A DNA stretch of 64,000 nucleotides from Acidobacteriota bacterium (lineage in GTDB: Bacteria > Acidobacteriota > UBA890 > WLXD01). The notes below the pieces were generated by a model, which searched no databases, had not been told where the DNA came from, and worked only from the letters and a program-made list of their open reading frames with translations. A program made the translations under genes and the position numbers. The DNA lies in assembly GCA_965248695.1 (NCBI GenBank), contig CBDFKD010000002.1:3168001-3232000 (forward strand). Direction: 5' to 3'. How positions within the stretch are numbered: the stretch's first letter is position 1; every line of letters starts with the position of its first letter. Shown here piece by piece: positions 7,699 through 20,365 of this stretch.

Positions 7699-8322
7699 AT
7701 GGCCTCCAGCGCTCGCTCCTTCCCGATTCGAGTCACCGTTATCGCCGCGACAATCACCGTTGGGCTCGCCGTGTTACTGCTGGCCGTCAACCGACTTGGG
7801 CGCCCAACGGCGGAGACCGAGCCCATCCCCGCCGAAGAACTCGTCGCCAATCTGGGTCCCGATGGCGACCCGGATGCCACACCCGCAGACGACCTGGCAA
7901 CGGCGGCAACCGAGCCAGTCACGCTGCAGCTGTTTCTGATCGATTCCGTCAATCGACGCCTGGTATCGCGCATCCAGCGGCTCGAGGCGCCGATGACGCT
8001 GGCGGCCAAGGCCCAGCTGGCCGTCGAACGGTTGATCGACGCTGTAGGCTCACCGTTGCCGGCCGGCACCGTCGTACGCGAAGTCTGGATATCGACGGCC
8101 GGCGTTGCCTATGTCGACTTCAGTGCCGACCTGCCGGACTCGCTGCCCCGGGGAAGCCTGGCGGAAATTCACGCCGTGTACGGTGTGGTCGGGACCTTGA
8201 CGTCATCGTTTCCGCAGATACGAGCAGTGCAGTTCCTGGTCGACGGTAACGGCGTGGACACGCTCACTGGCCATTTCGACCTCGCTGGCCCGATCTCGCC
8301 GCATCGCGACTGGCTGTACTAG
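7699..8322 (+). CDS. GerMN domain-containing protein
   Basis: N-terminal TM anchor; AYVDFS...GSLAEIHAVYGVVGTL...VQFLVDG...TLTGHFDL; usual position after the amidase. Confidence 0.85.
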   Translation: MASSARSFPIRVTVIAATITVGLAVLLLAVNRLGRPTAETEPIPAEELVANLGPDGDPDATPADDLATAATEPVTLQLFLIDSVNRRLVSRIQRLEAPMTLAAKAQLAVERLIDAVGSPLPAGTVVREVWISTAGVAYVDFSADLPDSLPRGSLAEIHAVYGVVGTLTSSFPQIRAVQFLVDGNGVDTLTGHFDLAGPISPHRDWLY

Positions 8323-8606
8323 TGGCCTGTAACAGATGAACGTTGCCTATCGTGGTGGCGAAATGGGCTCGGATGCCAGGCGCTACGACGAGACGATGTT
8401 GGCCCATCTTCGAGGAGGAGCAACGGGGCAGACGGGTCCATTTCGCCACTGTTCTCTTGATGGGCCTACGGACAGATGGGCAGTTGCGGGCGATATCGGC
8501 GTTGCACCTCGTCGACGATGCTCACTGCATCGCCGTCCTCGCCGCGCCTTGATCTCACCCGCAAATCCCATCTGCGATAGGCAACGTTCATCTGTTACAG
8601 GCCACT
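8321..8606. mobile_element. Non-autonomous MITE-like palindromic element (286 bp)
   Basis: Perfect 32-bp terminal inverted repeats AGTGGCCTGTAACAGATGAACGTTGCCTATCG (8321-8352 / 8575-8606); nested internal hairpins; no credible ORF. Confidence 0.8.
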
Positions 8607-8633: not shown

Positions 8634-9239
8634 GTGGACCTGCTCATCGGCACCCACAATCACGGCAAGATCGAGGAGATCTCAGCGCTCCTCGAAGGGG
8701 GGCCGTGGCGCTGTCGTCCGCTCCCCGAGGACGCCTCCGAGTATCCCGAGGCGGGCACTACCTTCGAGGACAACGCGCGCGGCAAGGCGCTGTTCTACGC
8801 TCGACTCACCGGCCTCATCACGCTTGCCGACGACTCGGGCCTGGAGATCGATGCGCTCGACGGCGAGCCCGGAGTCTATTCGGCGCGCTACATCGATCCG
8901 AACCTGTCACAGCAGCAGCGCAACCACGCCGTGCTCGAACGCCTTGCGAATGTCGCACCTCCTGATCGCCAGGCCCGATTCGTGTGCCACGCGGCGCTGG
9001 CGCGCCCGGATGGGCTGGTACACGAGTGCCGCGGTACGTGCAGCGGCAGTATTACCCGACAGCCTCGCGGCGAAGGAGGCTTTGGCTACGACCCGATCTT
9101 CCAGTGCACCGGCGACGAGCGCACTTTTGCGCAGCTCAGCCGCCAGGAGAAGTCTCGACGCTCCCATCGCGGCAAGGCCATCACGGCGATGATCGAGTTT
9201 CTACGCGACTGGACACCGACCGACCAGGCGGGCTCGTAG
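8634..9239 (+). CDS. rdgB: Non-canonical purine NTP pyrophosphatase (RdgB/HAM1)
   Basis: GTHNHGKIEE, TFEDNARGKA, ADDSGLEIDALDGEPGVYSARY, GFGYDPIF and SHRGKA motifs. Confidence 0.95.
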   Translation: MDLLIGTHNHGKIEEISALLEGGPWRCRPLPEDASEYPEAGTTFEDNARGKALFYARLTGLITLADDSGLEIDALDGEPGVYSARYIDPNLSQQQRNHAVLERLANVAPPDRQARFVCHAALARPDGLVHECRGTCSGSITRQPRGEGGFGYDPIFQCTGDERTFAQLSRQEKSRRSHRGKAITAMIEFLRDWTPTDQAGS

Positions 9240-9345: not shown

Positions 9346-9419
9346 CGGGGTGTGGCGCAGCTTGGAAGCGCACCTGCTTTGGGAGCAGGGGGCCGGAGGT
9401 TCAAATCCTCTCACCCCGA
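9346..9419 (+). tRNA. tRNA-Pro(TGG)
   Basis: Acceptor stem CGGGGTG/CACCCCG, anticodon arm CCTGC-TT-TGG-GA-GCAGG, T-loop GGTTCAAATCC; CCA not encoded. Confidence 0.95.
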
Positions 9420-9465
9420 CTTGGAATTCCTTTATCTCGTGGTCACATACGACGACACGCAGGGA

Positions 9466-9496
9466 TCGAGTCACCATAGAGTCACCGCAAGAGAGG
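9466..9496. repeat. Tandem 9-mer, integrase arm-site-like, copy A
   Basis: TCGAGTCACCATAGAGTCACCGCAAGAGAGG; a near copy lies at 12299-12330. Confidence 0.55.
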
Positions 9497-9600
9497 TCGA
9501 ACCCCGCCGAGAACCCACAAAATAGCGACTGCCTTCAGCCCGATCGGCGCGCGGCGAAGCCGATGATCGGGATTATTGGGGTTTACAAGACCCCCAATAA

Positions 9601-9643
9601 AACTCATAACCCGAAGGTCGCAGGTTCAAATCCTGCCCCCGCT
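9601..9643 (+). repeat. 3' half of initiator tRNA-fMet, att-like direct repeat copy 1
   Basis: CTCATAACCCGAAGGTCGCAGGTTCAAATCCTGCCCCCGCT matches the anticodon loop to acceptor 3' strand of bacterial tRNA-fMet. The 5' half is absent. Confidence 0.85.
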
Positions 9644-9783
9644 GTGCACAGGGGCTATCCCCTCCGCCCGATACTCAATGGTTCGTACGCATTCCTTGAT
9701 TGATCCCTGAGATCGTCGGCACGACCCGGACTGACCGGGATCGAGACGACTCGCTCCGAGACCACTGGCTTCAGAGTCGACTA

Positions 9784-10599
9784 CTAGCTCGAGAGTTGGC
9801 GATCGGCGCGCCGATCTCTGTACAGCGCCGCGGCTGCGACGAGCGTGGCCGCCGCGTACACCAGGTGACCGACCCACATGCCGTGCCACTCGCCCAGAGG
9901 GTGCGGATCGTTGCGCAGGATGTCGACCGCAAAGCGGATCAGGCCGTAGCCGCCGACGAACAACCACAGCACCGTGCCATCGCGCGCTCGCCTCAGAAAC
10001 ACCCACATCAGAAGCGCGAACAGCGCCAGTCCGGCACCGGCCTCGTAGAGCTGCGTCGGGTGTATCGCTACCCCTAGCGGCGCACCCCGTGGGTAGGGGA
10101 GCAGGAGGAAGTTGTAGGTGACAGCCCACGGAAGCTGCGTTGGTGCGCCGTAGCAGCATCCTGCCGCGGAGCAGCCGATCCGTTGGATCGGGATAGCGAG
10201 GCACGCGCTCAGGGCCACGACGTCGAGGCCCTTGAGAGCCGGGATGCCGTAGAGTCGCGAGTAAAGCAGCATGGCAAGCAGGGCGACGGGCAGGGCGATC
10301 AGACTGCTGCTTCCCGTCTCCTGAAGACTCTCGACCAGCGTCGTCCACACTGCGCCGCCCTGCTGTACTTGGGCGACGAAGCGGCCGAGCCCGAAGCTCG
10401 AAGCGACGATCAGCGTGATTGGCGCCACCCAGAGGAACGCCATGTAGGCGTGGTCAGGATCGATGCCTCGTCGCCTGAAGCCGAACCGCCAGATCAGCAA
10501 TCCGACGACAACAGCGACCCCACGGGCGAAGCCGTAGGTGAAAATTGGTAACACATCGCCGCCGGGCAATGGCACCACGTACAGAATCGGCGGAAGCAT
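9784..10599 (-). CDS. Divergent prolipoprotein diacylglyceryl transferase (Lgt family) paralog
   Basis: TYG, QRIGCSAAGCCYG, PWAV, HPTQLYE and YGLIRFAVDILR motifs; about 7 TM segments. The usual GARL and GGxSFHGG motifs are absent. Confidence 0.85.
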   Translation of the reverse strand: MLPPILYVVPLPGGDVLPIFTYGFARGVAVVVGLLIWRFGFRRRGIDPDHAYMAFLWVAPITLIVASSFGLGRFVAQVQQGGAVWTTLVESLQETGSSSLIALPVALLAMLLYSRLYGIPALKGLDVVALSACLAIPIQRIGCSAAGCCYGAPTQLPWAVTYNFLLLPYPRGAPLGVAIHPTQLYEAGAGLALFALLMWVFLRRARDGTVLWLFVGGYGLIRFAVDILRNDPHPLGEWHGMWVGHLVYAAATLVAAAALYRDRRADRQLSS

Positions 10600-10735
10600 G
10601 CCGTAAATCGTATGCCGTGCGCGACCGCCGGCGAAATCGCCGGCGGCGAGGATTCTATCGGGAGCGGCGGTTCGCCCCTTGTACGAACCGAGCGACTGAG
10701 CGTAGGCTGCGGCCTTTGGGTAACAGGGAACGTGC

Positions 10736-11839
10736 ATGAGTACCGACCAGCCGGCCGACGAACACACGACGTTCTGCTTGCCGTCCAGCCGCGGCGTCCT
10801 GCGCGCCGTGGTCGTGGGCTGTTTGCTACCGCTGGTTCTTATCGGGGCGTCGACCACCGGGAGCGGCTGTTGCGGATGCTCGATCGATTCCGCATCGTTC
10901 AGTTCGCGGGGCACGGGCGCGGCCGATCCCTACTCGCTGAGCTTCCTCGGCGGCACGGCCGCGATCTCCTTTCCCGACCCGGACGGTAGCGAGATCGTCG
11001 CCAACAACGCGCGCACGCTGATCACGACCATTACTCCCGGATTGCCCGTCTTGTTCCCGGAGGGGACCCTGACCGTGACCGGCACCGCTGCCAAGGTGGC
11101 GGGGCGAGGCGGGGCGCCGCCCAAGAAACTCCTGATGGACGCGGATCACAAGGCAGCAGGCGAGTCCGCAGCCAAGGTCTTCTCCACGGTCCTGAAGATC
11201 AAGAACGGAAAGATCAAACAGACCAAGGACCAGGTCGACGGCTTCACGGCGCAGCCGGGTGAACGGGTGAGGGTGTTCCTGCGGCCCAGGGGCGGCGCCG
11301 TGACGAACGATCAGACGTACGACCTCACCTACAACTACGCCCCCACACCCGCGGGGCTGGCGGCGGCGATGCGCGAATACGGTTGGACAGCGCTGAGTGC
11401 GATCGAGACGGGGCGCCGCCTGTTGTCGACGGTGCCGGATGGCGCCGGAGCACTGCCTCTATTGTTCCGGGCCAACCGCACGATCGAGGCGAAGGCGAAG
11501 CAGGACGTAGTGAGTGTCGTGTACGGCGTTGCCTTCGAAACGGCAGCTTTCGACCTGGCGGTCGGCGCTGGCTTCTTCGGGCAGGGCGCCAGTAAGTCGT
11601 TGGCGCCCAAGCGCGTCACGGTATTCGTGGTAATACGTGACGCCGAAGGTAACACGAAGCTGTCGGTGACCTACAAGCTCGCGGTCCAGAACAACAACGT
11701 CGCTCTGGTCACCAAGGCGATCGAAGCGCTGAGCATCGAACCCGGCGACGAGCTCGATATTCAGATGAAGCTCAATGGCGGAGACGTCAACCCGGGCGAC
11801 GGCGTGTTCATTTTCCTCACCGCCACGCCGAGTCCTTGA
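10736..11839 (+). CDS. Hypothetical exported protein with GSGCCGC motif and two tandem beta-rich repeats
   Basis: 367 aa; hydrophobic N-terminal segment followed by a Cys cluster; internal duplication visible by eye. Confidence 0.75.
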   Translation: MSTDQPADEHTTFCLPSSRGVLRAVVVGCLLPLVLIGASTTGSGCCGCSIDSASFSSRGTGAADPYSLSFLGGTAAISFPDPDGSEIVANNARTLITTITPGLPVLFPEGTLTVTGTAAKVAGRGGAPPKKLLMDADHKAAGESAAKVFSTVLKIKNGKIKQTKDQVDGFTAQPGERVRVFLRPRGGAVTNDQTYDLTYNYAPTPAGLAAAMREYGWTALSAIETGRRLLSTVPDGAGALPLLFRANRTIEAKAKQDVVSVVYGVAFETAAFDLAVGAGFFGQGASKSLAPKRVTVFVVIRDAEGNTKLSVTYKLAVQNNNVALVTKAIEALSIEPGDELDIQMKLNGGDVNPGDGVFIFLTATPSP

Positions 11840-11973
11840 CGAGGACGGCTGGCAGCTCCTCTCCCTACGCGGTGCGCGTCTTCGCGGCCCGAATCTGCCT
11901 GAATCGCCTGGCATCACTCACTGCGACCAGTACTAGCAGGCTCGGCTCGCGCTGCCGTCCAGCGGGGTCCGAT

Positions 11974-12019
<46 letters not shown>

Positions 12020-12178
12020 CCAGAACGTCCCGAATGGCGCAGCGATTTTTCCCCGTGCTCGTCACCGGGGCTTTCTGCGTCGCGGGTCGATATCTAACAG
12101 CCATCTAACGATCGATAGCGATTGACAGTCCGCACGTCCCAGATCGATCGGAAGAAGGCGACCCCACGTTGCTGATCG

Positions 12179-12230
12179 GAGCAACTGATCCGTAATCAGC
12201 AGGTCCGCGGTTCGAATCCGCGCGCCGGCT
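12179..12230 (+). pseudogene. 3' fragment of a tRNA-Thr-like gene (CGT at the anticodon position)
   Basis: GAGCAACTGATCCGTAATCAGCAGGTCCGCGGTTCGAATCCGCGCGCCGGCT: T-arm intact, no matching 5' acceptor strand upstream. Confidence 0.75.
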
Positions 12231-12247
12231 CTTTGTAAGCCTCGCAG

Positions 12248-12260
12248 AATCAATATCTTG
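12248..12260 (+). promoter_or_regulatory. IHF-consensus box
   Basis: AATCAATATCTTG matches WATCAANNNNTTR exactly and lies between the tRNA fragment and the arm-like repeats. Confidence 0.5.
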
Positions 12261-12298
12261 CGGGGCTCCAGCTTCTTGTTTGCCTAGGGCGGTCTAAG

Positions 12299-12330
12299 TC
12301 GAGTGACCATAGAGTGACCACGCGGAGAGG
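12299..12330. repeat. Tandem 9-mer, integrase arm-site-like, copy B
   Basis: GAGTGACCA-TA-GAGTGACCA, 11-bp period. Confidence 0.55.
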
Positions 12331-12590
12331 TTTCGCTGTCGGTTTCAGCGCCCCTAGAAGGCTTGCGCGCTCATCGCTTGGCGGTCACTTAGCCGCCTGC
12401 TACGCGACCTCACGCCTGATCCGGTAGAGCGTGCGCTCGTGCACATCGAGGCGGATACGGCGCTGGCTGAGGTGCGGCTCGCCTCACTCATGGCGTAATG
12501 CATAGGGTCGCCAGCGCTCGATAAAGGCATCCTGATGGCATTCATTCAAACAACCTCGGGCACCGCACTCCGGCGTCGCTACTTGCCTAT

Positions 12591-13988
12591 TTAGGCATCA
12601 CCCGCGACGACGTTCGGAAGGCCAGCGAGCGCATCGAGATTTGACGCTGGGTGAACGCTACCCAGCGCCTGTTTCGGCTTGACGAAGAACGTCGCCACCC
12701 GCAGCTCACTACTCGTCGCCGACGTGGTCTGCTCCCACGCGACGATGCCGTTGGGGTCGTCGTCCAGGAAGGTGGAGCGATTGTCGGCGCGCAGCATCAG
12801 CATCTCCATCGTGTCGAGGTTGCCGCCATGCGACGCGATGGTCGTCTTCTTGCCGAAGGGCTTGGCGTTAGTGGCCATCTTCCGGTGAACGATGTTGCCA
12901 CCTCGCTCTGCAACAACTACCGGACCCAGGCTCTCCTTCGGAGCCTCGGCTCGGGCCGGTACCAAGAACGGGTCCGGGAGTGCCAAAAGGGCGGCAAATC
13001 CCTTGGAACTCGAGCCGGCGAAGACGAGACTGAGGTCACCTCCGGCCAGGTCGACCTGCCCGACATACGTGAAGGAAACGAGAGACCGGTTCTTTAGTCC
13101 GCTGACTGTGATGCCGAATAATCCGTCACTCCTCGTCTCGATGCGAGACGCGATGACAAGATCGAAACCGCCGTCATTACCCAATCTGTGGATCTCTTGA
13201 AACTGGTCTGTATCCGTATCACGGATCCCAAAGACCAAGTCCGTAGTTTCGGTATCGCGGTATAGCAGCATCTGGTACTGACCAGGACGGCCCGTCTCCG
13301 TCTTGAACTCACTGACATCGAGCACTTCCGCGCTGGGCACTAGGGCGACCGCTGGGGCTGTCTTGTATTTCTTGTCCTGCCGAAGTACGCGGGAAACCAG
13401 GGTAACAACCTTGGCCGCCCCCCTTCCCGCCACGCCGAACTGCGAGTAATATAGGGTAACGTCGACACCCTCGTCGTGTTCATCGACGAGCAGACGGGAC
13501 AGCCCGTTCAAGATCCCGTCCGAGACCAGCGTGCGCAGCTTACCCAGCTTCCCCTTTCTGCTGATCGTTCGGCTTTCCAGCGGGCCGCGTTGGAAGTCCG
13601 TCCAGACAACGAGGTACTCGCGCCGGTCGGGAATCCACGCTACCGCCGGCTCGTTGCGGAACGCCCCTTTGGCACTCAGCCGGTGCAGCGGCCCCGGCTC
13701 GTAGGTCGCCGTTGACCCGCGCCCCGAGCCTCCCTTTCTCGTAAGCAGGCGAGCACGTACCTCGCTGAGCTGAGCGGAGTCCGTGTGCGTCCACACGACG
13801 AGCACGTCGCCGTTGTCGGGATTGGCGGCCAGCTCCGGCAGCGTGTTCTGGAATTGCAGCCCATCGCTGATGACGCTGCCGTCGTCGGCTCCGCTGGCCT
13901 GGTGCCCGGAGCTATCGACCGGCTGCGCCTGTAGACCGATGCTTGCAGCAAGCAACGCCACCGTGACGATACGACCAGGGGCTTTCAT
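12591..13988 (-). CDS. Hypothetical secreted protein, possibly a beta-propeller
   Basis: 465 aa with a signal peptide; repeated PxxAx(n)LVVW blades (PELAANPDNGDVLVVW, PAVAWIPDRREYLVVW, GIVAWEQ); GAGG RBS. Confidence 0.7.
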   Translation of the reverse strand: MKAPGRIVTVALLAASIGLQAQPVDSSGHQASGADDGSVISDGLQFQNTLPELAANPDNGDVLVVWTHTDSAQLSEVRARLLTRKGGSGRGSTATYEPGPLHRLSAKGAFRNEPAVAWIPDRREYLVVWTDFQRGPLESRTISRKGKLGKLRTLVSDGILNGLSRLLVDEHDEGVDVTLYYSQFGVAGRGAAKVVTLVSRVLRQDKKYKTAPAVALVPSAEVLDVSEFKTETGRPGQYQMLLYRDTETTDLVFGIRDTDTDQFQEIHRLGNDGGFDLVIASRIETRSDGLFGITVSGLKNRSLVSFTYVGQVDLAGGDLSLVFAGSSSKGFAALLALPDPFLVPARAEAPKESLGPVVVAERGGNIVHRKMATNAKPFGKKTTIASHGGNLDTMEMLMLRADNRSTFLDDDPNGIVAWEQTTSATSSELRVATFFVKPKQALGSVHPASNLDALAGLPNVVAGDA

Positions 13989-14182
13989 CGATGACCTCCG
14001 GCGAGTGCGTTTGCATCCAGGCGTCTCTACGAGCGCCAGGAGAGACTCAGCCTACAGGCGTGGCCTGGGTGTGAACACTCGCAGAGTCAGAACAGTCGGC
14101 ACGGTCGAGTCCTAGCCCCGCTGCCGCGCGCCTCCTTGCACCTCCTCCCGTTGTATTGGCTGTGCGATTCGGCAAGGATGGC

Positions 14183-15545
14183 GGATCCGGCCCGAGTCCT
14201 GTGGAAATAAAGATGGCGTAACCTCCGAGTAGGAAAAACACAAAGCCGCCACGAGCGGCAGGAGGCTACGCCGTGAAGCAGGTTAGCACGGAGGGAACCG
14301 GGCTCGTCGAGTTCCGGCAGGACGTACAGGCGCTGTTGCGCACCAGGATCCGCGAGGCGATCCAGATGACGCTTGACGAGGAGCTCACCGAGGCGCTGGG
14401 TTGCGACCGATACGAGCGCAACGGGCAGCGGCGAGGCTACCGCAACGGCAGCCAAAGGCGTCGGGTGACGACAGCCCAAGGGCTCCAGGAGCTGGACATA
14501 CCGCGGGGGCGCATCGTGGGGCAAGACGGCAGCACCCGAGAGTTCCGCAGCGCGATCCTGCCACGGTACGCACGGCGAGCCCGGCAGGTGGACGAGGCGA
14601 TCCTGGGAGCATACCTGGCGGGAGCCAACACCCGGCGGATCCGCAAGGCGCTCTCTCCGCTGCTGGGCAAGGCGCACCTGACCAAGAGCACGATCTCCAG
14701 GGTGGTGGGGCGCCTGAAGGCGTACTTCGAGCGCTGGAGACAGCGAGATGTGTCAGGCGAGCGGTACTGGATCCTGTATTTGGACGGGTTCCATCTGAAG
14801 GTCAGGCTGGCGAGGCGGGTCGTGTCGGCGCCGGTACTGGCGGTGCTCGGGGTCCAGCCCGACGGCCAGAAGGTGTTGGTAGCGTTGCAGTTGGCGGTCT
14901 CGGAGGCAGCGGTGCACTGGCAAGGACTGATCGAGTCGCTGGTGAGACGAGGGCTGCAGGCGCCGGAGGTGCTGATCGCCGACGGCCACAAGGGCCTGGC
15001 CAAGGCGATCGAGGTATGGCCCGATGTGTCGGTGCAGCGGTGCACACAACACAAGTGGAGCAACTTACGCGACCACTGCCCGGTTCATGCACGTGCGGAG
15101 ATGAAGCGGGACTGGGATGCGATCGTCCGGGCCGATGACGGCAACCAGGCCAGAGCCGCCTACGCCGCCTTCGTACGCAAGTGGTCGACCCTCGTGCCCG
15201 CCGTGGCCCGGAGCCTGCAGGAGGCCGGCTTGAACCTGCTGACTTTCTACCAGTTCCCGAAGCCGATGTGGAAGACGCTGCGCACCACCAACGCCCTCGA
15301 GAACCTGAACCGGGAGTTCCGTCGTCGTACCAAGACGCAGGGCTCGTTCTCGACCGAGGCCGCTGGGGTGACGTTGCTGTGGAGCCTGGTCGCCTTCGGC
15401 CAGATCCGCATGCGACGCATCGATGGCCACCGGTTCTTGGCTCAGCTCACGTGCGGCCCCGACAAACAGGCCGCCTAACCGATAGGATCATCCGTCGTCG
15501 CGGAGGAGACGCTCATCCAATTTCCACGACATTCGGGGCACATCC
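14183..15545 (+). mobile_element. IS256 family insertion sequence
   Basis: Imperfect 25-bp terminal IRs (18/25; GGATCCGGCCCGAGTCCTGTGGAAA vs the reverse complement of TTTCCACGACATTCGGGGCACATCC) flank the transposase. No clear target duplication. Confidence 0.85.
14273..15478 (+). CDS. IS256 (mutator-type) DDE transposase
   Basis: YERNGQRRGYRNG, LYLDG, LIADGHKGL, QRCTQH and LRTTNALENLNREFRRRTK motifs. Confidence 0.95.
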   Translation: MKQVSTEGTGLVEFRQDVQALLRTRIREAIQMTLDEELTEALGCDRYERNGQRRGYRNGSQRRRVTTAQGLQELDIPRGRIVGQDGSTREFRSAILPRYARRARQVDEAILGAYLAGANTRRIRKALSPLLGKAHLTKSTISRVVGRLKAYFERWRQRDVSGERYWILYLDGFHLKVRLARRVVSAPVLAVLGVQPDGQKVLVALQLAVSEAAVHWQGLIESLVRRGLQAPEVLIADGHKGLAKAIEVWPDVSVQRCTQHKWSNLRDHCPVHARAEMKRDWDAIVRADDGNQARAAYAAFVRKWSTLVPAVARSLQEAGLNLLTFYQFPKPMWKTLRTTNALENLNREFRRRTKTQGSFSTEAAGVTLLWSLVAFGQIRMRRIDGHRFLAQLTCGPDKQAA

Positions 15546-15710
15546 CCTGGGGCGGAGACGACTACACAGCTCACTGCGGCGGGCGTTCTTCTGGGCACCC
15601 CGGCGTTCGCGTCGCCCGAGCAGCTCCGAGGAGACCGGGACCTGGACGTCCGGTCCGATATCTACTCCGTCGGGGCCACCCTCTTCTGGTTGCTGACCGG
15701 GCGGCCACGC
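15546..15710 (+). pseudogene. Fragment of a Ser/Thr protein kinase (subdomains VIII-IX)
   Basis: Translates as LTAAGVLLGTPAFASPEQLRGDRDLDVRSDIYSVGATLFWLLTGRP; begins at the IS end. Confidence 0.8.
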
Positions 15711-15921
15711 TCTTTAGATTCAATAAGTTATAGCCAGTCACTCTGGACACTTCCGTGTAGGGGGTCGGTATGGGGGTCGGCGAGTGACTTACGGATCGAC
15801 GTTGTTGGTGCCGGCTACGCTCCGCTCCGCCGGCTCCAACAATCTCTTGTCAGCACAGATTCTATGAGTTACGAAGTGGCCTCAACACTTGGGGCAGGTC
15901 ATAGGAGCCTAAGAAGAGGGC

Positions 15922-15954
15922 GGGGTCGGAGGTTCAAATCCTCTTACCCCGACT
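15922..15954 (+). repeat. attR-like copy of the tRNA-Pro 3' end
   Basis: GGGGTCGGAGGTTCAAATCCTCTTACCCCGACT vs 9389-9421, 31/33 identical. Confidence 0.85.
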
Positions 15955-16074
15955 CAACAAGCGGTTTCCGCGGGCGGAGATCTGGCCTGACGGACGAGCC
16001 TACCGGGCGCGCGCGCGCCCGACGGCGGCGGTCCCGAGAGCGCGAACGCTTCAAATCACAAGGGAGGAGGGCCC

Positions 16075-17058
16075 ATGTTTGTCCCAGAAACGTTTGCCAT
16101 CGCCATGGTGATGATGATCACGAGCACCGTGTGTTGGGGTTCGTGGGCAAACACGTCCAAGCTCACCACGGACTACCGATTCGAGCTGTTCTACTGGGAC
16201 TATGCGCTCGGCATCTTTCTCGTCTCCCTGATCCTCGCCTTCACCATGGGCTCGACCGGCGGCGAGGGCGAGGGTTTTCTGGCCAATGTGGCGGTCGCCG
16301 ACCGGGGCAACATCGTCTCGGCCCTGATCGGCGGGTTCATCTTCAACATCGCGAATCTGCTTCTTGTCGCTGGCATCGACCTCGCAGGCCTGGCAGTGGC
16401 TTTCCCGGTTTCGATCGGTATCGCTCTGGTCGTCGGAGTCGTCATGAGTTACGCCATCCAGCCGGTTGGCGATCCGATGCTCCTTGGCCTCGGCGTGGCC
16501 CTCGCGATCATCGCGGTGATCCTGATCGGCAAGGCGTACGGCCGCCTCGCAACCGATGGTGAGGCGGTCTCCCGCAGGAGCCTGATGATCTGTGTGATCT
16601 CGGGGCTCCTGATGGGCTCCTTCGCGCCGTTCGTGACCAGTGCACTCACCGCAGGACATCCCTTGAGTCCTTACAGCATCGCCGTGTTCTTCACCCTCGG
16701 CGCTCTTCTCTGCTGTTTTGTGGTCAACGTGTATTTCATGAAGAAGCCCCTGGTCGGGACACCGGTCAATTTCTCGGGCTTCTTCTCGGCCGGCCCCAGA
16801 AACCATGCGCTCGGAATTCTGGGTGGCTTCATCTGGGGTACCGGCACGGTGTTCAACTTCGTCGCGGCGAGCCTCGTCGGCGTGCCGATCTCGTATGCCG
16901 TCGGTCAGGCAGCCCCGATGGTGGCGGCGACCTGGGGGGTCTTCGTATGGCATGAATTCAAGGGCGCGGACAAGAAGGCGAAGCAATACCTCACGTTCAT
17001 GTTCCTCTTCTACATTCTCGCGCTGGTCGCCATCGCGAGCGCCTACAACGCGGGCTAG
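16075..17058 (+). CDS. DMT-superfamily sugar (GRP/ureide permease-like) transporter, probably ribose
   Basis: CWGSWANT...YRFELFYWDY, AGLAVAFPVSIG, SYAVGQAAPMVAATWGVFVWHEF; about 10 TM segments; directly upstream of ribokinase. Confidence 0.8.
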   Translation: MFVPETFAIAMVMMITSTVCWGSWANTSKLTTDYRFELFYWDYALGIFLVSLILAFTMGSTGGEGEGFLANVAVADRGNIVSALIGGFIFNIANLLLVAGIDLAGLAVAFPVSIGIALVVGVVMSYAIQPVGDPMLLGLGVALAIIAVILIGKAYGRLATDGEAVSRRSLMICVISGLLMGSFAPFVTSALTAGHPLSPYSIAVFFTLGALLCCFVVNVYFMKKPLVGTPVNFSGFFSAGPRNHALGILGGFIWGTGTVFNFVAASLVGVPISYAVGQAAPMVAATWGVFVWHEFKGADKKAKQYLTFMFLFYILALVAIASAYNAG

Positions 17059-17060
17059 AT

Positions 17061-17993
17061 ATGACAAAGACTTCTCATGTCGCCGTCGTCGGCAGCGCCA
17101 ACATCGATCTCACGACCTTCAACGACCGCTGGCCCCGCGGCGGCGAGACCATCTTCGGCGAGAGCTTCGACATCGGCTTCGGCGGCAAAGGCGCCAACCA
17201 GGCCGTGGCGGCCAAGCTCTGCGGCGCCGACGTTTCGATGGTCGCCTGCGTCGGCAACGATCTGTTCGGACCCTCGACGGTCGAGAACTTCGAAGCCCAG
17301 GGCATCAACGCCGACCACGTCCAGATCGTCGAGGGAATCTCGAGCGGCGTGGCACCTATTTTCGTGGACACGGCCTCGGGTCAAAACCGGATCCTGGTCG
17401 TTCCGGGAGCCAACAACAAGGTGCTCCCGGCCACGGTCGATGCGGCCTCGGAACTGCTCAAGACAGCGGACTGCATCGTCCTTCAGTTCGAGATTCCGCT
17501 CGAGACCGTCTACTACGCGATTCGCTTTGCCCACGAGAACGGCATCCGCTGCATTCTCAACCCGGCACCGGGCCAGGCGGTCGATATGGAGCAGGTCGCG
17601 AAACTCGATTACTTCGTGCCCAACGAGACCGAGGCTGAAGCGGTCACTGGCATTGAGGTCAAGAGCGTCGACGACGCCAAGCGCTGCGCCGAGAAGCTAC
17701 TCGGAGCCGGCATCAAGCGCGTCATCATCACCCTCGGTTCGATGGGCTCTCTCCTCGCAGGCGCGGAAGGCATGGAGCACGTTCCGGCCTTCGAAGTGAA
17801 CGCGGTCGACACCACCGGAGCGGGTGACGCTTTCATCGGCAGCTTCTCGGTATTCCTTGGCGAAGGTCTGGATGAAATGGGGGCCGTGAGACGGGCGAAT
17901 CTCTACGCCGGCCTCTCGACGACGGGCGTGGGCACCCAGAAGTCGTTCTTGAATCGAGCCGCTTTCGACGCTGCGTGGGCCGAACGGAAGTGA
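17061..17993 (+). CDS. rbsK: Ribokinase
   Basis: VVGSANIDL, GGKGANQAVAA, LNPAP, PNETEA and DTTGAGDAFIG PfkB signatures. Confidence 0.93.
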   Translation: MTKTSHVAVVGSANIDLTTFNDRWPRGGETIFGESFDIGFGGKGANQAVAAKLCGADVSMVACVGNDLFGPSTVENFEAQGINADHVQIVEGISSGVAPIFVDTASGQNRILVVPGANNKVLPATVDAASELLKTADCIVLQFEIPLETVYYAIRFAHENGIRCILNPAPGQAVDMEQVAKLDYFVPNETEAEAVTGIEVKSVDDAKRCAEKLLGAGIKRVIITLGSMGSLLAGAEGMEHVPAFEVNAVDTTGAGDAFIGSFSVFLGEGLDEMGAVRRANLYAGLSTTGVGTQKSFLNRAAFDAAWAERK

Positions 17994-17994
17994 A

Positions 17995-19056
17995 TTACGG
18001 CTGCGCCGGAGGCCGCCGCATAAGCTCGACAAACAACCTCTCGAAACGCTCCAAGTCGATGTCCGTTTGCACCGTCCAGGTGTTGCCGGCAAACCACGGC
18101 TCGGTGCCATCGGATGTCCAGACCGTCTTGCCATAGCTCGGTCCCGGCAGGTAGTCCACGTCTAGCCGCAGCTCTTCGGTCTCGGTGATGATTCCGGGAT
18201 CGATTATCGCGGCCGCGGCCAGCTCGTCACACATATAGCTATAGCCACGGTCCAACTCGAGATAGCTCACCCGCAGGAACTCCGCCAGCGGCGTGCCCGC
18301 ATCCGCGATCTGCTCGATCATCTCTTTGGTCATGTAGGTCTTCGGACAGACGTCGATCGGCGTCAGGTGCCGTTCCTTCCAGGGCGCGCGAACGTGAATG
18401 AACGCCGCTTCAGCGTCCCACCAGAAGTTGAATCGCTGATTGGTGTGGATGTGTCCGCCCATGGTGTAGACGGCTTTGATCTTGTCGACGATGTCGGGCG
18501 CCAGGCGAATCGCGAGCGCTATGTTCGTGAGCGGTCCCGCCGTGTGGAGTACCAGCTCACCCGGATACCTTCGAGCCATCTCGATCAGGAGCTCAGCAGC
18601 GGTCTTGTCGACCACTCTCAGCTTGACCGGGCCTCCGGGCTCTTGGTCGATAACTTCCCTGGGGTCCACCCACTCGCCCCAGTTGCCGTGCCAACCGTCA
18701 CCGCCCTTGTCGCCCCAGAGCTCTTCGCGTCGCTTCATCATCTCTTGCGAGTTCAAAAGCGGCACTTCCGAGCCCGCCGCGACCGGCACCTGTGTCTGGC
18801 CTGTCAACTCGACGATCTTGAGTGTGTGATAGACGGCCTGATCGAGCCACGCATCGCCGGCTACCACGCCGATACCGACGACCTCGATGTTGGGCGCCTG
18901 CAGCAGCATGGCGATCGAAACCGAGTCCGTCCCAGCCGGGCCGGACGTGTCCTGATCGATGAAAACCTTGACACGCTCGTGATCGTCGGCACGAACCGGA
19001 GCCGTAGGTGCGAAAACCAACCCGATCGCCAGGCAAGAAAGTGCGAAACGACACAT
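17995..19056 (-). CDS. Secreted nucleoside hydrolase (IU-NH family)
   Basis: Signal peptide ending VRA; FIDQDTSGPAGTD, AGPLTNIALA, MGG, FNFWWDAEAA and DELAAA motifs. Confidence 0.88.
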   Translation of the reverse strand: MCRFALSCLAIGLVFAPTAPVRADDHERVKVFIDQDTSGPAGTDSVSIAMLLQAPNIEVVGIGVVAGDAWLDQAVYHTLKIVELTGQTQVPVAAGSEVPLLNSQEMMKRREELWGDKGGDGWHGNWGEWVDPREVIDQEPGGPVKLRVVDKTAAELLIEMARRYPGELVLHTAGPLTNIALAIRLAPDIVDKIKAVYTMGGHIHTNQRFNFWWDAEAAFIHVRAPWKERHLTPIDVCPKTYMTKEMIEQIADAGTPLAEFLRVSYLELDRGYSYMCDELAAAAIIDPGIITETEELRLDVDYLPGPSYGKTVWTSDGTEPWFAGNTWTVQTDIDLERFERLFVELMRRPPAQP

Positions 19057-19159
19057 GGAGCTTCTCCTGTCTCCGCCGTTGAGCCGCGAGTGCATCGCGG
19101 CCTTTCTTGAGGCGGCCGCATAATTCGCTCGCGAGAATGCATGATGGAACCCGGTCCGG

Positions 19160-20365
19160 CTAGCCGAGCTTCCTGAGGATCATGCACTTCAGGTAGCGGC
19201 TCTCGGGCATACCGATGCGAATCGGGTGATCGCTACTCTGGCCCCCCCGATGCACGAGGATCAGCTCGGCTCGCACATCAGCGGCCGCCTGCTCGATCAA
19301 TTCCAGGAAATCTGCCTCGCTGATGTGATAGGAGCAGCTCGAAGTCACCAGGTAGCCGCCGGGCCGCAGCAGCTTGAGGGCACGCAGGTTGATCTCCTTG
19401 TAGCCACCGCGCGCACTTTCTACCGCCGCCTTGTTCTTGGCGAACGCCGGCGGATCGAGCACGATCGTGTCGAAGCTTTCTCCGCGATCGACGAGCTCGC
19501 GTAGGTGATCGAAGACGTTGACGGCTCGCGCGTCGATGCTGGCCTCGTTGATGGCGGCGTTGCGCTCGATCGCCGCTACTGCTTCTTCGGAAATGTCGAG
19601 CGCCACCACCTCGTCACAGCTTGGAGCGAGCTGCAGCGCGAAGGCTCCCTGGTAGCTGAAGCAATCCAGTAGCCGTCCGCGGGCAACGGTGGCGGCAGCG
19701 GCGCGATTCTCCCGCTGATCAAGAAACAGACCGGTCTTCTGGCCGCCGTGGAGATCGACTTCCAGCTGCGCCTGGCCGTCGCGGATCTGCACGCGATCTG
19801 GAATCTCGCCATGCACAACATCCACACGGCGCTCCAACCCCTCGAGCGTACGTACCCGTCCATCGTTGCGCGCCAGGACGCCGGCCGGCGACAGGAGATC
19901 CACCAGCAACTCGACGATCTCGTCGGTGCGGCGGTCGATGCCCTGGGCGAGCGTCTGCACCACCAAATAGTCGCCGTAGCGGTCGACGATCAGCGCCGGC
20001 AGCCAATCAGCTTCGGCGTGCACCAGCCGGTAGGCGTCGGCGTCGATCTCGAGCGCCTGGCGGTAGTCGATCGCCGCCTGCAGGCGCTCGCGCCACAGCC
20101 GCAGATCCGGCCGCGGTCCGCGATCACAGAAGCGGCGTAGCGCGATCTGCGACGCGTCGCTATAGAGCGCGTAGCCGACGTCACGGCCGCGCGGTCCCCT
20201 AACGCGAACGAGATCTCCGGACGCCGCTTTGATCTCGTGCAGATCGCTACGGTAGATCCACGGGTGCGACCCGTTGGCACGGCGGGCGCCTCGACGGGTA
20301 AGCACGACCTGAGGCTGCGTCGGCGTCTCGACGTGGGTTTCGCTCTCGGCGCTCGGCTCGACCAT
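19160..20365 (-). CDS. rlmI: Class I SAM-dependent rRNA methyltransferase (RlmI family, PUA domain)
   Basis: HPWIYRS, LIVDRYG, GQKTGLFLDQRENR, LDCFSYQGAF, LDPPAFAK and YLK motifs. Confidence 0.88.
   Translation of the reverse strand: MVEPSAESETHVETPTQPQVVLTRRGARRANGSHPWIYRSDLHEIKAASGDLVRVRGPRGRDVGYALYSDASQIALRRFCDRGPRPDLRLWRERLQAAIDYRQALEIDADAYRLVHAEADWLPALIVDRYGDYLVVQTLAQGIDRRTDEIVELLVDLLSPAGVLARNDGRVRTLEGLERRVDVVHGEIPDRVQIRDGQAQLEVDLHGGQKTGLFLDQRENRAAAATVARGRLLDCFSYQGAFALQLAPSCDEVVALDISEEAVAAIERNAAINEASIDARAVNVFDHLRELVDRGESFDTIVLDPPAFAKNKAAVESARGGYKEINLRALKLLRPGGYLVTSSCSYHISEADFLELIEQAAADVRAELILVHRGGQSSDHPIRIGMPESRYLKCMILRKLG

Follow-up and report, generated by a model that had tools for sequence, protein, structure and literature searches.

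Displaced tRNA-fMet, tRNA-Thr and tRNA-Pro 3' parts behind a tRNA-Pro gene in an Acidobacteriota genome: a probable hotspot of nested, decayed integrative elements

Displaced tRNA fragments mark the ends of integrated islands (PMC4383910), and such islands can decay to integrase-less cis-mobilizable elements (CIMEs) flanked by attachment (att) sites, into which newcomers integrate (PMC5704250; Pavlovic 2004 and Bellanger 2011 cited there). In this study, we analyzed a 64,000-nucleotide stretch of an Acidobacteriota genome (the window, meaning this whole stretch; G000:C2:3168001-3232000), in which an intact tRNA-Pro gene is followed by 3' parts of three different tRNAs. We propose that the segment at 9421-19145 is probably a tRNA-Pro hotspot filled with nested, decayed tyrosine-integrase elements, in which an orphan unit carrying two att cores, referred to as the pad, served as a landing site. 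Positions without further label are those of the window, and positions labeled C2 alone are those of its genome, G000 (5.89 Mb, 65% G+C, two contigs).

Suspected fragments were compared with the tRNA genes of G000 by BLAST, and tRNA genes were called with ARAGORN and Rfam (Rfam tRNA threshold 29 bits). Protein families were assigned with Pfam, NCBIfam and PHROGs, and recombinases were searched with the profiles PF00589 (tyrosine) and PF00239 (serine). The comparison set consisted of four genomes of the same genus (congeners, G001-G004), of which G003 is the closest, with 88-91% DNA identity across the flanks of the tRNA-Pro locus.

tRNA 3' parts and the twice-interrupted pad

BLAST identified four tRNA 3' parts behind tRNA-Pro, all on the + strand: two of tRNA-fMet (A and B), one of tRNA-Thr and one of tRNA-Pro (Table 1). 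An earlier interpretation, made from the letters of the window (the sequence-only reading), had listed the same intact tRNA-Pro, on which ARAGORN and Rfam agree, and the same four parts, which BLAST confirmed. It had also held that the source fMet and Thr tRNAs are not encoded here, and neither ARAGORN nor Rfam detected an intact gene for either one in the window. Core A is identical at 41/41 positions (9603-9643) to the sole initiator-type tRNA-Met of the genome (C2:3669783-3669857), core B at 40/41 (11980-12020), and the two cores agree at 41/43; the reference for the Thr part is tRNA-Thr(CGT) at C2:5294070-5294142. Identity starts in the anticodon loop for fMet, at about position 17-21 for Thr and at position 44 for Pro. 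Patterns of the fMet, Thr and Pro cores (28-37 nt, up to 3 mismatches) occurred 2, 1 and 2 times in the window, compared to 0 times in 100 shuffles each. Additionally, a fifth att-related remnant is present at 15709-15802, namely the arm that follows Thr cores in relatives.

In a relative, the pad is contiguous over about 378 bp, in which a hairpin arm is followed by an fMet core, a spacer, a Thr core and an arm with repeats. It lies in a 601-nt stretch of G004:C15, which maps colinearly onto three pieces of the window: positions 90-164 onto 9569-9643 (89% identity), 122-379 onto 11974-12234 (82%) and 373-467 onto 15709-15802 (88%). The fMet core (G004:C15 positions 122-164) is matched twice in this map, and therefore the pad is interrupted twice in the window. 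An uninterrupted succession of hairpin, core and flank is also found in G000 itself (C2:3674987-3675177), and both C2:3674987-3675061 and G004:C15 match window 9569-9643 at 89-92% identity.

The first interruption is a 2.33-kb insert within the fMet core. Its left core copy, A, is tRNA-perfect, while its right copy, B, carries the GTCGTAGG variant of the pad lineage, which is common to the pads at G004:C14, G004:C15 and G001:C202. Judged from the sequence, the 43-nt core duplication around the insert is the signature of a site-specific integration, the target of which would be an orphan core and not a tRNA gene. The polarity is consistent with crossing over at the 5' boundary of the fMet core, a tRNA-perfect copy A being expected from an incoming attP.

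The uninterrupted unit recurs in the genus. Window 11975-12234 (fMet B, spacer and Thr; query 11960-12260) is contiguous at G004:C14 (89%), C10 (82%) and C15 (82%) and partly so at G001:C202. Six aligned copies share 93-100% identity in their fMet cores and 57-95% in their spacers (71-95% among the five variant-I copies); Thr cores of the window and the G004 copies share 91-98%. Similarity stops sharply at the first base of the fMet core, the sequence to its left is unrelated, and outside the pad most pairs show 7-48% identity. Two continuations, 61-89% alike for 60 nt, follow the Thr core, one in the window and G003:C18 and the other in three G004 copies. The arm at 15709-15802 (arm 2) is 83-88% identical to sequences at G004:C15, C12 and C10 and at G002:C9, where it directly follows a Thr core in each case.

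The full spacer is present in 5/5 genomes of the genus, including G000, and was not found outside the genus, where one 47-nt match occurred in another genus of the family and none in the sister family (0/15). Its first 65 nt also lie behind intact tRNA-fMet genes in G003:C18, G003:C30, G000 and the metagenome locus L120. This flank folds into a long hairpin; a simple scan did not call it as a terminator, and we describe it as structured only. G003:C18 and G004:C15 were considered as native tRNA-fMet loci and rejected, their own flanks being mosaic.

The neighbors at the start of the fMet core differ by copy and include an integrase gene (G004:C14), the hairpin arm, an inverted Leu(CAG) core, a tRNA 5' half (G003:C18, L120) and the insert with the lgt paralogue. 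Pads occupy non-orthologous loci in G004 and G000, and the one in G004:C15 sits between tRNA-Asp and a displaced tRNA-Asp 3' fragment. At L026 (G004:C10:10200-30199), positions 9903-10879 hold Thr(-), fMet(-), Leu(CAG)(+), a tRNA-Lys without its first 9 nt, an intact tRNA-Glu and Thr(+) within 1 kb, and the anticodon-loop ends of the fMet and Leu fragments abut head to head. By this comparison, fMet B and Thr are parts of one conserved unit and not independent scars. The stack of fragments described by the sequence-only reading thus stands as to its four members, and not as a series of independent pile-ups. Some segments around the pads are unusually alike between species: those in L027 (G004:C15:471300-491299) are 94-98% identical to G000:C2:44337-55543 and 2454306-2456472, with a species background of about 80%. 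These segments adjoin tRNA-Asp/Val and lie within a tRNA-Arg array, and their identity near such a background suggests recent exchange of island DNA between species.

No integrase was found in the window, in agreement with the sequence-only reading: PF00589 had 13 matches genome-wide and PF00239 had 2, and 0/13 and 0/2 of them, respectively, lie there. The island also yielded no integrase remnants or excisionase-like small open reading frames (ORFs), its small ORFs being without Pfam match. Integrases next to the intact fMet and Thr tRNAs, which the earlier interpretation had suggested looking for, were likewise absent, as none of the 13 PF00589 matches lies within about 50 kb of an intact tRNA-fMet or tRNA-Thr(CGT) gene, and no recombinase adjoins the other fMet or Thr fragments of G000. 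Relatives carry 35 (G002), 29 (G004), 7 (G003) and 7 (G001) PF00589 matches, and many tyrosine integrases stand beside fMet and Thr cores there. In front of the G004:C14 pad, at a distance of about 160 nt from its fMet core, a 498-aa integrase (PF00589 and SAM_3) is encoded, and the best relative of this integrase in G000 is 26% identical. At seven of eight loci with an integrase beside an fMet or Thr core, only a fragment and no intact tRNA is present within about 8 kb, a biased rate given that the eight were chosen for a core near an integrase; the eighth, L119, is a textbook island of the form tRNA-Thr(TGT)...int...fragment.

The tRNA-Pro hotspot, its cargo and its erosion

Genes for an amidase, a Germane-domain protein and RdgB precede tRNA-Pro on the left, and the order amidase-Germane-rdgB-tRNA-Pro is kept in G001-G004 (4/4). 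A scan of genome contigs with the RdgB protein gave matches of no more than 38-50% identity, spread over many phyla; the gene families leave an impression of acidobacterial affinity. An orthologue of the methyltransferase gene at 19160-20365 follows tRNA-Pro after 83 nt in G001 and after 107 nt in G004, that is, the site is empty in 2/4 congeners. Because this gene stands directly behind tRNA-Pro there, we take the strain-specific variable segment to be 9421-19145 (9.7 kb); the sequence-only reading had let it end at 15954. At the same site, G003 carries a different insert of 2.3 kb with an oxidoreductase-like ORF and G002 about 18 kb of unrelated genes, and no integrase was found in any of the three inserts. 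The variation among relatives anticipated earlier was therefore borne out, and the identical arrangement was not seen. The sugar (ribose) transporter gene, previously regarded as the right flank, had to be given up as such: it lies elsewhere in G001, G002 and G004, with no tRNA nearby. The methyltransferase gene is therefore the true flank on that side. The whole block 15955-19145 is missing from the tRNA-Pro locus in 4/4 congeners.

The first 16-20 nt or so downstream of tRNA-Pro are common to the window and G003. The repeat GAGTSACC-ATA-GAGTSACC occurs only twice in the 5.9-Mb genome, at 9468-9486 (48 nt behind tRNA-Pro) and at 12301-12319 (behind the Thr core). Its presence at both places suggests that related recombination machinery acted behind tRNA-Pro and behind the Thr core, and the direct repeats in the arm 9421-9568 are putative arm-type binding sites.

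Table 1. Features of the tRNA-Pro locus (window positions)
Feature	Position	Strand	Remarks
rdgB/Ham1-family gene	8634-9239	+	Pfam Ham1p_like E 6.4e-59; conserved left flank, syntenic with tRNA-Pro in 4/4 congeners
tRNA-Pro(TGG), intact	9346-9420	+	ARAGORN; Rfam 63.7 bits; attL-type left att of outermost insertion
Arm behind tRNA-Pro	9421-9568	+	Direct repeat GAGTCACC-ATA-GAGTCACC at 9468-9486
Pad piece 1, hairpin arm preceding fMet cores	9569-9600	+	9-bp stem in fold
tRNA-fMet 3' core A	9601-9643	+	Anticodon loop to position 73; left copy of 43-bp duplication; BLAST, pattern search
Insert within fMet core of pad	9644-11973		2,330 bp; 43-bp core duplication at ends; no recombinase
lgt paralogue	9784-10914	-	Pfam LGT E 1.2e-31
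Predicted secreted protein, 367 aa	10736-11839	+	No significant family match
tRNA-fMet 3' core B	11974-12016	+	Right copy of duplication, resident pad copy; BLAST
Pad spacer	12017-12178	+	162 nt; 65-nt structured flank after fMet core, then arm preceding Thr cores; fold z = -3.2
tRNA-Thr(CGT) 3' core	12179-12235	+	About positions 17-73, without 5' acceptor strand; BLAST 55/57; Rfam 26.5 bits, sub-threshold
Second interruption	12236-15708		3.47 kb; begins directly after Thr core
Arm 1 after Thr core	12236-12396	+	Left end of second interruption; GAGTGACC-ATA-GAGTGACC at 12301-12319
Predicted secreted protein, 465 aa, cargo	12591-13988	-	No Pfam, NCBIfam or PHROGs match
IS256-family insertion sequence (IS)	14182-15545	+	Transposase 14273-15478, Pfam Transposase_mut E 1.3e-82; no target-site duplication
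Ser/Thr protein-kinase fragment, 55 residues	15546-15708	+	Matches Pfam Pkinase at 154-195 of 263 model positions with E 1.1e-5 (below curated cutoff); both ends cut
Pad piece 3 (arm 2)	15709-15802	+	Directly after Thr cores in relatives; GGGGGTCGG-TAT-GGGGGTCGG repeats; core absent here except for 7 nt, GCTCTTT
IS3-family right end, truncated copy	15797-15901	+	105 bp; Pfam: IS3 architecture; abuts end of pad arm
tRNA-Pro 3' core	15922-15954	+	Positions 44-75 plus 1; 31/33 identical to tRNA-Pro; attR-type right att of Pro-level insertion
Further strain-specific block	15955-19145		Sugar transporter, PfkB kinase, nucleoside hydrolase (Pfam); no recognisable right att
Sugar transporter	16075-17058	+	Pfam
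PfkB kinase	17061-17993	+	Pfam
Nucleoside hydrolase	17995-19095	-	Pfam
PUA/SAM methyltransferase gene	19160-20365	-	Pfam; conserved right flank of hotspot

The genome has three full-length LGT matches, among them the lgt paralogue in the first insert, and also a split pair; the strongest match lies at C2:3708300. For the 367-aa protein, neither Pfam nor PHROGs gave a match, the best NCBIfam hit had an E-value of 0.05, and a scan of metagenome contigs returned no relative. Apart from a 68% match to lgt, the DNA of the insert has no match in the four congeners.

In the second interruption, arm 1 is 85% identical to G003:C18, where it also lies behind a Thr-like core, and the block 12397-14095 is missing from the G003:C18 counterpart. 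The IS256-family copy has ten full-length and one partial counterpart elsewhere in the genome (99.9-100% identical). Its flanks in the window are AGGATGGC and CCTGGGGC, and 6/9 other copies show an 8-bp duplication. Two of the three other copies without duplication (C2:2302851-2304215 and 2788391-2789753) have reciprocal flanking 8-mers, TTGTGCTC and CAACTCGA, as would be left by recombination between these two copies. The missing target duplication in the window indicates a probable IS-mediated deletion or exchange. The IS3 remnant is about 90-94% identical over about 105 bp to some 17 genomic copies, and its first 63 bp are 87% identical to the ends of a 1,260-bp IS with 66 further matches in the genome, about 42 of which are full-length copies.

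The stretch was also found in contigs from four metagenomic runs of one study, which are probably the source sample and hence no independent backing. Contigs from up to four runs cover 9395-9630, 9614-12013, 12052-14211 and 15518-15887 with zero differences, and one single contig takes in 9614-12013, including the whole 2.33-kb insert. Among the listed contigs, none bridges the IS256 copy, 12013-12052 or 15887-16047; the join across IS256 appears to be backed independently by the colinearity of the pad. One contig of run X1 joins 9420 to 15922, with 20 letters on the shorter side of the joint; an excision product would have a different form, and this joint was not counted. No joint of 9643 to 12017 was found in the contigs, which drop rare variants.

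Other sequences near the locus were also recorded. Between the Germane-domain gene and rdgB, window 8319-8606 is a repeat of about 290 bp that resembles a miniature inverted-repeat transposable element, with tens of copies (80-98% identity) in G000, G002, G003 and G004 and fewer in G001. The genome has an identical second tRNA-Pro(TGG) copy at C2:2838155. Outside the window, at G000:C2:2836726-2838233 (partly covered by L125), the arrangement Germane-rdgB-tRNA-Pro is present a second time, in part, behind an IS3 element. This copy is 93-98% identical to the G002/G004 locus and 72-78% to the window copy, and looks like chromosomal flank that was imported. It is followed after 230 nt by 55 nt of a tRNA-Phe 3' part, so that a foreign fragment stands behind this tRNA-Pro as well.

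Genome-wide, about 27 tRNA fragments are left once one false repeat family is removed, and by our own sorting about half of them lie away from their cognate gene. At G000:C2:2452044-2479157, seven 39-42-nt 5' fragments of tRNA-Arg(TCT) stand 3-6 kb apart upstream of the gene, with one more at 2394505; the units are related and divergent (67-95%). In the Islander data, arrays of at least three account for 4/3919 islands, and 5' fragments are a rare type (PMC4383910). A region at G000:C2:4077203-4106825 that also contains IS3 and IS256 copies has four tRNA-Leu(CAA) 3' fragments within 30 kb, and the genes for tRNA-Leu(CAA) are about 4 Mb away. Near several fragment loci lies a repeat of 56 nt, present in multiple copies (G000:C2:4679540-4679595 and about 26 other places). 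It was considered as an att arm and rejected; it is the 3' end of a gene family with the C-terminus ...NWFDELKRLVPTDP. ARAGORN further called a 94-nt tRNA-Cys(ACA) at 9552-9645, without Rfam support, which is false because it is made of the hairpin and fMet part A. Another false call is a 98-nt tRNA-Pro(GGG) at G000:C2:4157204-4157301, the first 41 nt of which are a repeat with about 45 copies.

Proposed history and alternatives

We propose that the outermost insertion would be bounded by the intact tRNA-Pro and the displaced 33-nt Pro 3' copy. The ribose/nucleoside block beyond this copy could, on one reading, be an older island that lost its att site. Inside, the portable pad of about 380 bp would present, with each of its cores, a sequence that an integrase recognizes in a real tRNA gene. 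The orphan fMet core would have recombined with an incoming element whose attP is of the fMet type, giving A and B around the 2.33-kb cargo, and a second piece of DNA would have entered at the 3' end of the Thr core. The integrase genes would then have been lost, leaving CIME-like remnants, and IS256 and IS3 activity would have removed further DNA. Catalysis by tyrosine integrases, binding of proteins to the arm repeats and this order of events are presumed throughout, and the insertions may have taken place at this locus or before the arrival of the DNA, with the pad being filled here or arriving filled. Since related integrases are absent and given the degree of erosion, we regard the locus as a probable fossil, and the structure looks inactive in this genome. 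The sequence-only reading had offered nested remnants of several islands as one of two possibilities, and it is this one that the empty site in 2/4 congeners, the arms common to integrase-adjacent att sites in relatives and the IS scars favor.

Several points weigh against this history. The catalyst is one that we infer, because neither an integrase nor an excisionase nor remnants of them were found in the window. No intact 2.33-kb element is known, because the cargo genes are without relatives in the four congeners or the metagenome scan. At the right junction of the second interruption there is no copy of the Thr core and only the 7-nt overlap (GCTCTTT) beside the kinase fragment, and site-specific entry at the Thr core is putative. 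The Pro-level history is incomplete because the DNA behind the Pro 3' copy differs from the ancestral flank and a search of 18900-19250 for another Pro-core remnant found none (score 20, reached by 41/300 control windows). Additionally, the two sides of the IS256 copy, which lacks a target duplication and is unspanned by the listed contigs, are joined only by the assembly and by pad colinearity. Further, homologous recombination of larger segments, and not carriage within integrative elements, could have spread the pad copies, and the eight integrase-associated loci were a biased choice, as stated above.

The abundance of IS copies (about 42 full-length IS3, ten IS256 and one partial) makes it conceivable, in our view unlikely, that general or IS-mediated recombination moved att-bearing pieces behind tRNA-Pro, the duplication stemming from a tandem array at the true tRNA-fMet locus and not from integration into an orphan core. 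An integration into attR within a tandem array would yield the same picture of hairpin-core ... core-flank, target duplications are lacking at the window IS256 and at 3/9 other copies (two with reciprocal flanks), and the share of fragments far from their cognate genes points the same way, as far-off fragments are read as signs of rearrangement in PMC9897764. However, the junctions coincide with tRNA crossover points, there is no IS at 9569 or at either end of the 2.33-kb insert, and pads are found at non-orthologous loci in G004 and G000, one of them with tRNA-Asp on one side and its displaced 3' fragment on the other. This explanation would still require that an element integrated site-specifically into a displaced fragment (attR), such that it differs from ours mainly in the place of the event. 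Even less credit is due to a decayed local cluster of tRNA-Pro, tRNA-fMet and tRNA-Thr genes that lost their 5' halves, which we consider the least probable origin of all: the weak full-length Rfam alignments at 11961-12017 (25.8 bits) and 12162-12230 (26.5 bits), both below threshold, are compatible with it, but it is already contradicted by the empty sites, with nothing between tRNA-Pro and the methyltransferase gene in 2/4 congeners, by the same unit with the same truncation points at unrelated loci, and by the absence of the 5' acceptor strands.

The other possibility raised by the sequence-only reading was a platform in which acquired cores become landing sites for integrases acting in trans. 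Its first half is supported in one respect, as an acquired core, the orphan fMet core split by the insert with its 43-bp duplication, appears to have served as a target. That the platform is working at present, with integrases encoded elsewhere in the genome adding or removing integrase-less cassettes at the cores, seems quite improbable to us. The cores are better conserved than the spacer, the 2.33-kb insert has near-perfect repeats and no integrase, so that it could be moved only in trans, and cooperation of several att systems is seen in the tripartite integrative and conjugative element (ICE) ICE3 (PMC5882170). Against this, none of the 13 PF00589 proteins is encoded in the window or near the intact tRNA-fMet and tRNA-Thr(CGT) genes, the closest G000 relative of the pad-adjacent G004 integrase is a distant one (26%), core B and the Pro 3' copy contain mismatches, IS insertions and truncations break the structure, and the right junction at the Thr core is lost. 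Mis-joins through tRNA-like cores or IS copies in a metagenome-derived assembly would be a technical explanation, and a very improbable one. All runs are metagenomic and from one study, and the IS256 copy is the suspicious place, but four segments are covered by zero-difference contigs from up to four runs, cores of 33-57 nt are too short to mislead a long-read assembly that gave two contigs for 5.9 Mb, and pad colinearity supports the join across IS256.

Returning to the history of nested and decayed elements, we tentatively suggest that the pad could be a portable double docking site on mobile DNA of the genus, multiplying the targets of fMet- and Thr-specific integrases, which we consider possible and rather doubtful. 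If true, islands could nest in islands at any tRNA or non-tRNA locus without risk to real tRNA genes, repeated recombination would keep the pad cores nearly tRNA-perfect, and the common occurrence of foreign tRNA 3' stacks in these genomes would be due to pads, not chance. A pad that is selected as a portable landing site would provide a simple natural way of spreading integration sites, and it would bear on island growth by nesting and on the search for integrase/att pairs as tools.

Relation to known systems

At the level of sequence, the locus offers an explanation of why 3' fragments are found behind the "wrong" tRNA, namely re-use of att sites on mobile DNA as targets and not local scarring. 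Island finders that need a cognate fragment and an integrase would miss the structure, because no integrase lies inside it, and tRNA finders can be misled, as by the false tRNA-Cys(ACA). A keyword search of the literature returned no description of heterologous double-att units as landing sites.

An integron platform gathers cassettes that lack a promoter or a recombinase, and it does so by site-specific recombination in trans. The window differs from it in having no intI (no PF00589 match, and thus no tyrosine recombinase) and in its repeats, which are 3' parts of tRNAs of different identity; attI and attC were not specifically sought.

With ICE3 of Mesorhizobium, the locus shares regions bordered by unlike att halves, which arise there from several att systems on one element (PMC5882170). 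ICE3 has three integrases, three excisionases, conjugation genes and a regulated assembly order (PMC5882170), whereas no recombinase was found in the window or beside the other fMet or Thr fragments of G000 (the search was for recombinases, not for conjugation genes, in the window and genome-wide), and no reciprocal partner regions were identified in the genome. In Thermococcales, tRNA-targeting integrases of mobile elements also reshuffle chromosomes and shift tRNA fragments away from their genes (PMC5495485). There, in archaea, the integrase is of the SSV/pTN3 type with little sequence specificity, and the inversions are large (PMC5495485), in contrast to the precise core insertions of the window. 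Neither of these two routes to heterologous att neighbors fits such precise insertions.

The locus also resembles the tRNA islands of Islander, in which an intact tRNA is followed by a displaced cognate 3' fragment in direct orientation (PMC4383910), as tRNA-Pro is here, and the segment is absent from relatives, two of which have the empty site. Judged by the points at which identity begins, the fMet and Thr blocks resemble the anticodon-centered Islander class and the Pro block the T-stem class (PMC4383910). Unlike Islander islands as described there, the segment has no integrase inside, 3/4 of its fragments are non-cognate, and the DNA past the Pro fragment is not the native flank.

The proposed history matches the route known from CIMEs and tandem accretion, where integration and transfer genes are lost, att repeats are kept, a newcomer enters a resident att site and a composite island results (PMC5704250). 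In the window, cores A and B (41/43) are kept around the lgt paralogue and the secreted protein only, and the Pro pair is kept likewise. Known accretion, as far as the source describes it, stacks one specificity at one target, with the same core between elements; here, the internal cores are fMet, fMet and Thr behind Pro, with one cognate Pro copy, and two of the att sites travel as one unit of about 380 bp (PMC5704250 for comparison). Tandem accretion and CIME formation are known processes, and most of the locus is ordinary island decay in an IS-rich genome; what is unusual is the recurring double-att pad and its use as a target.

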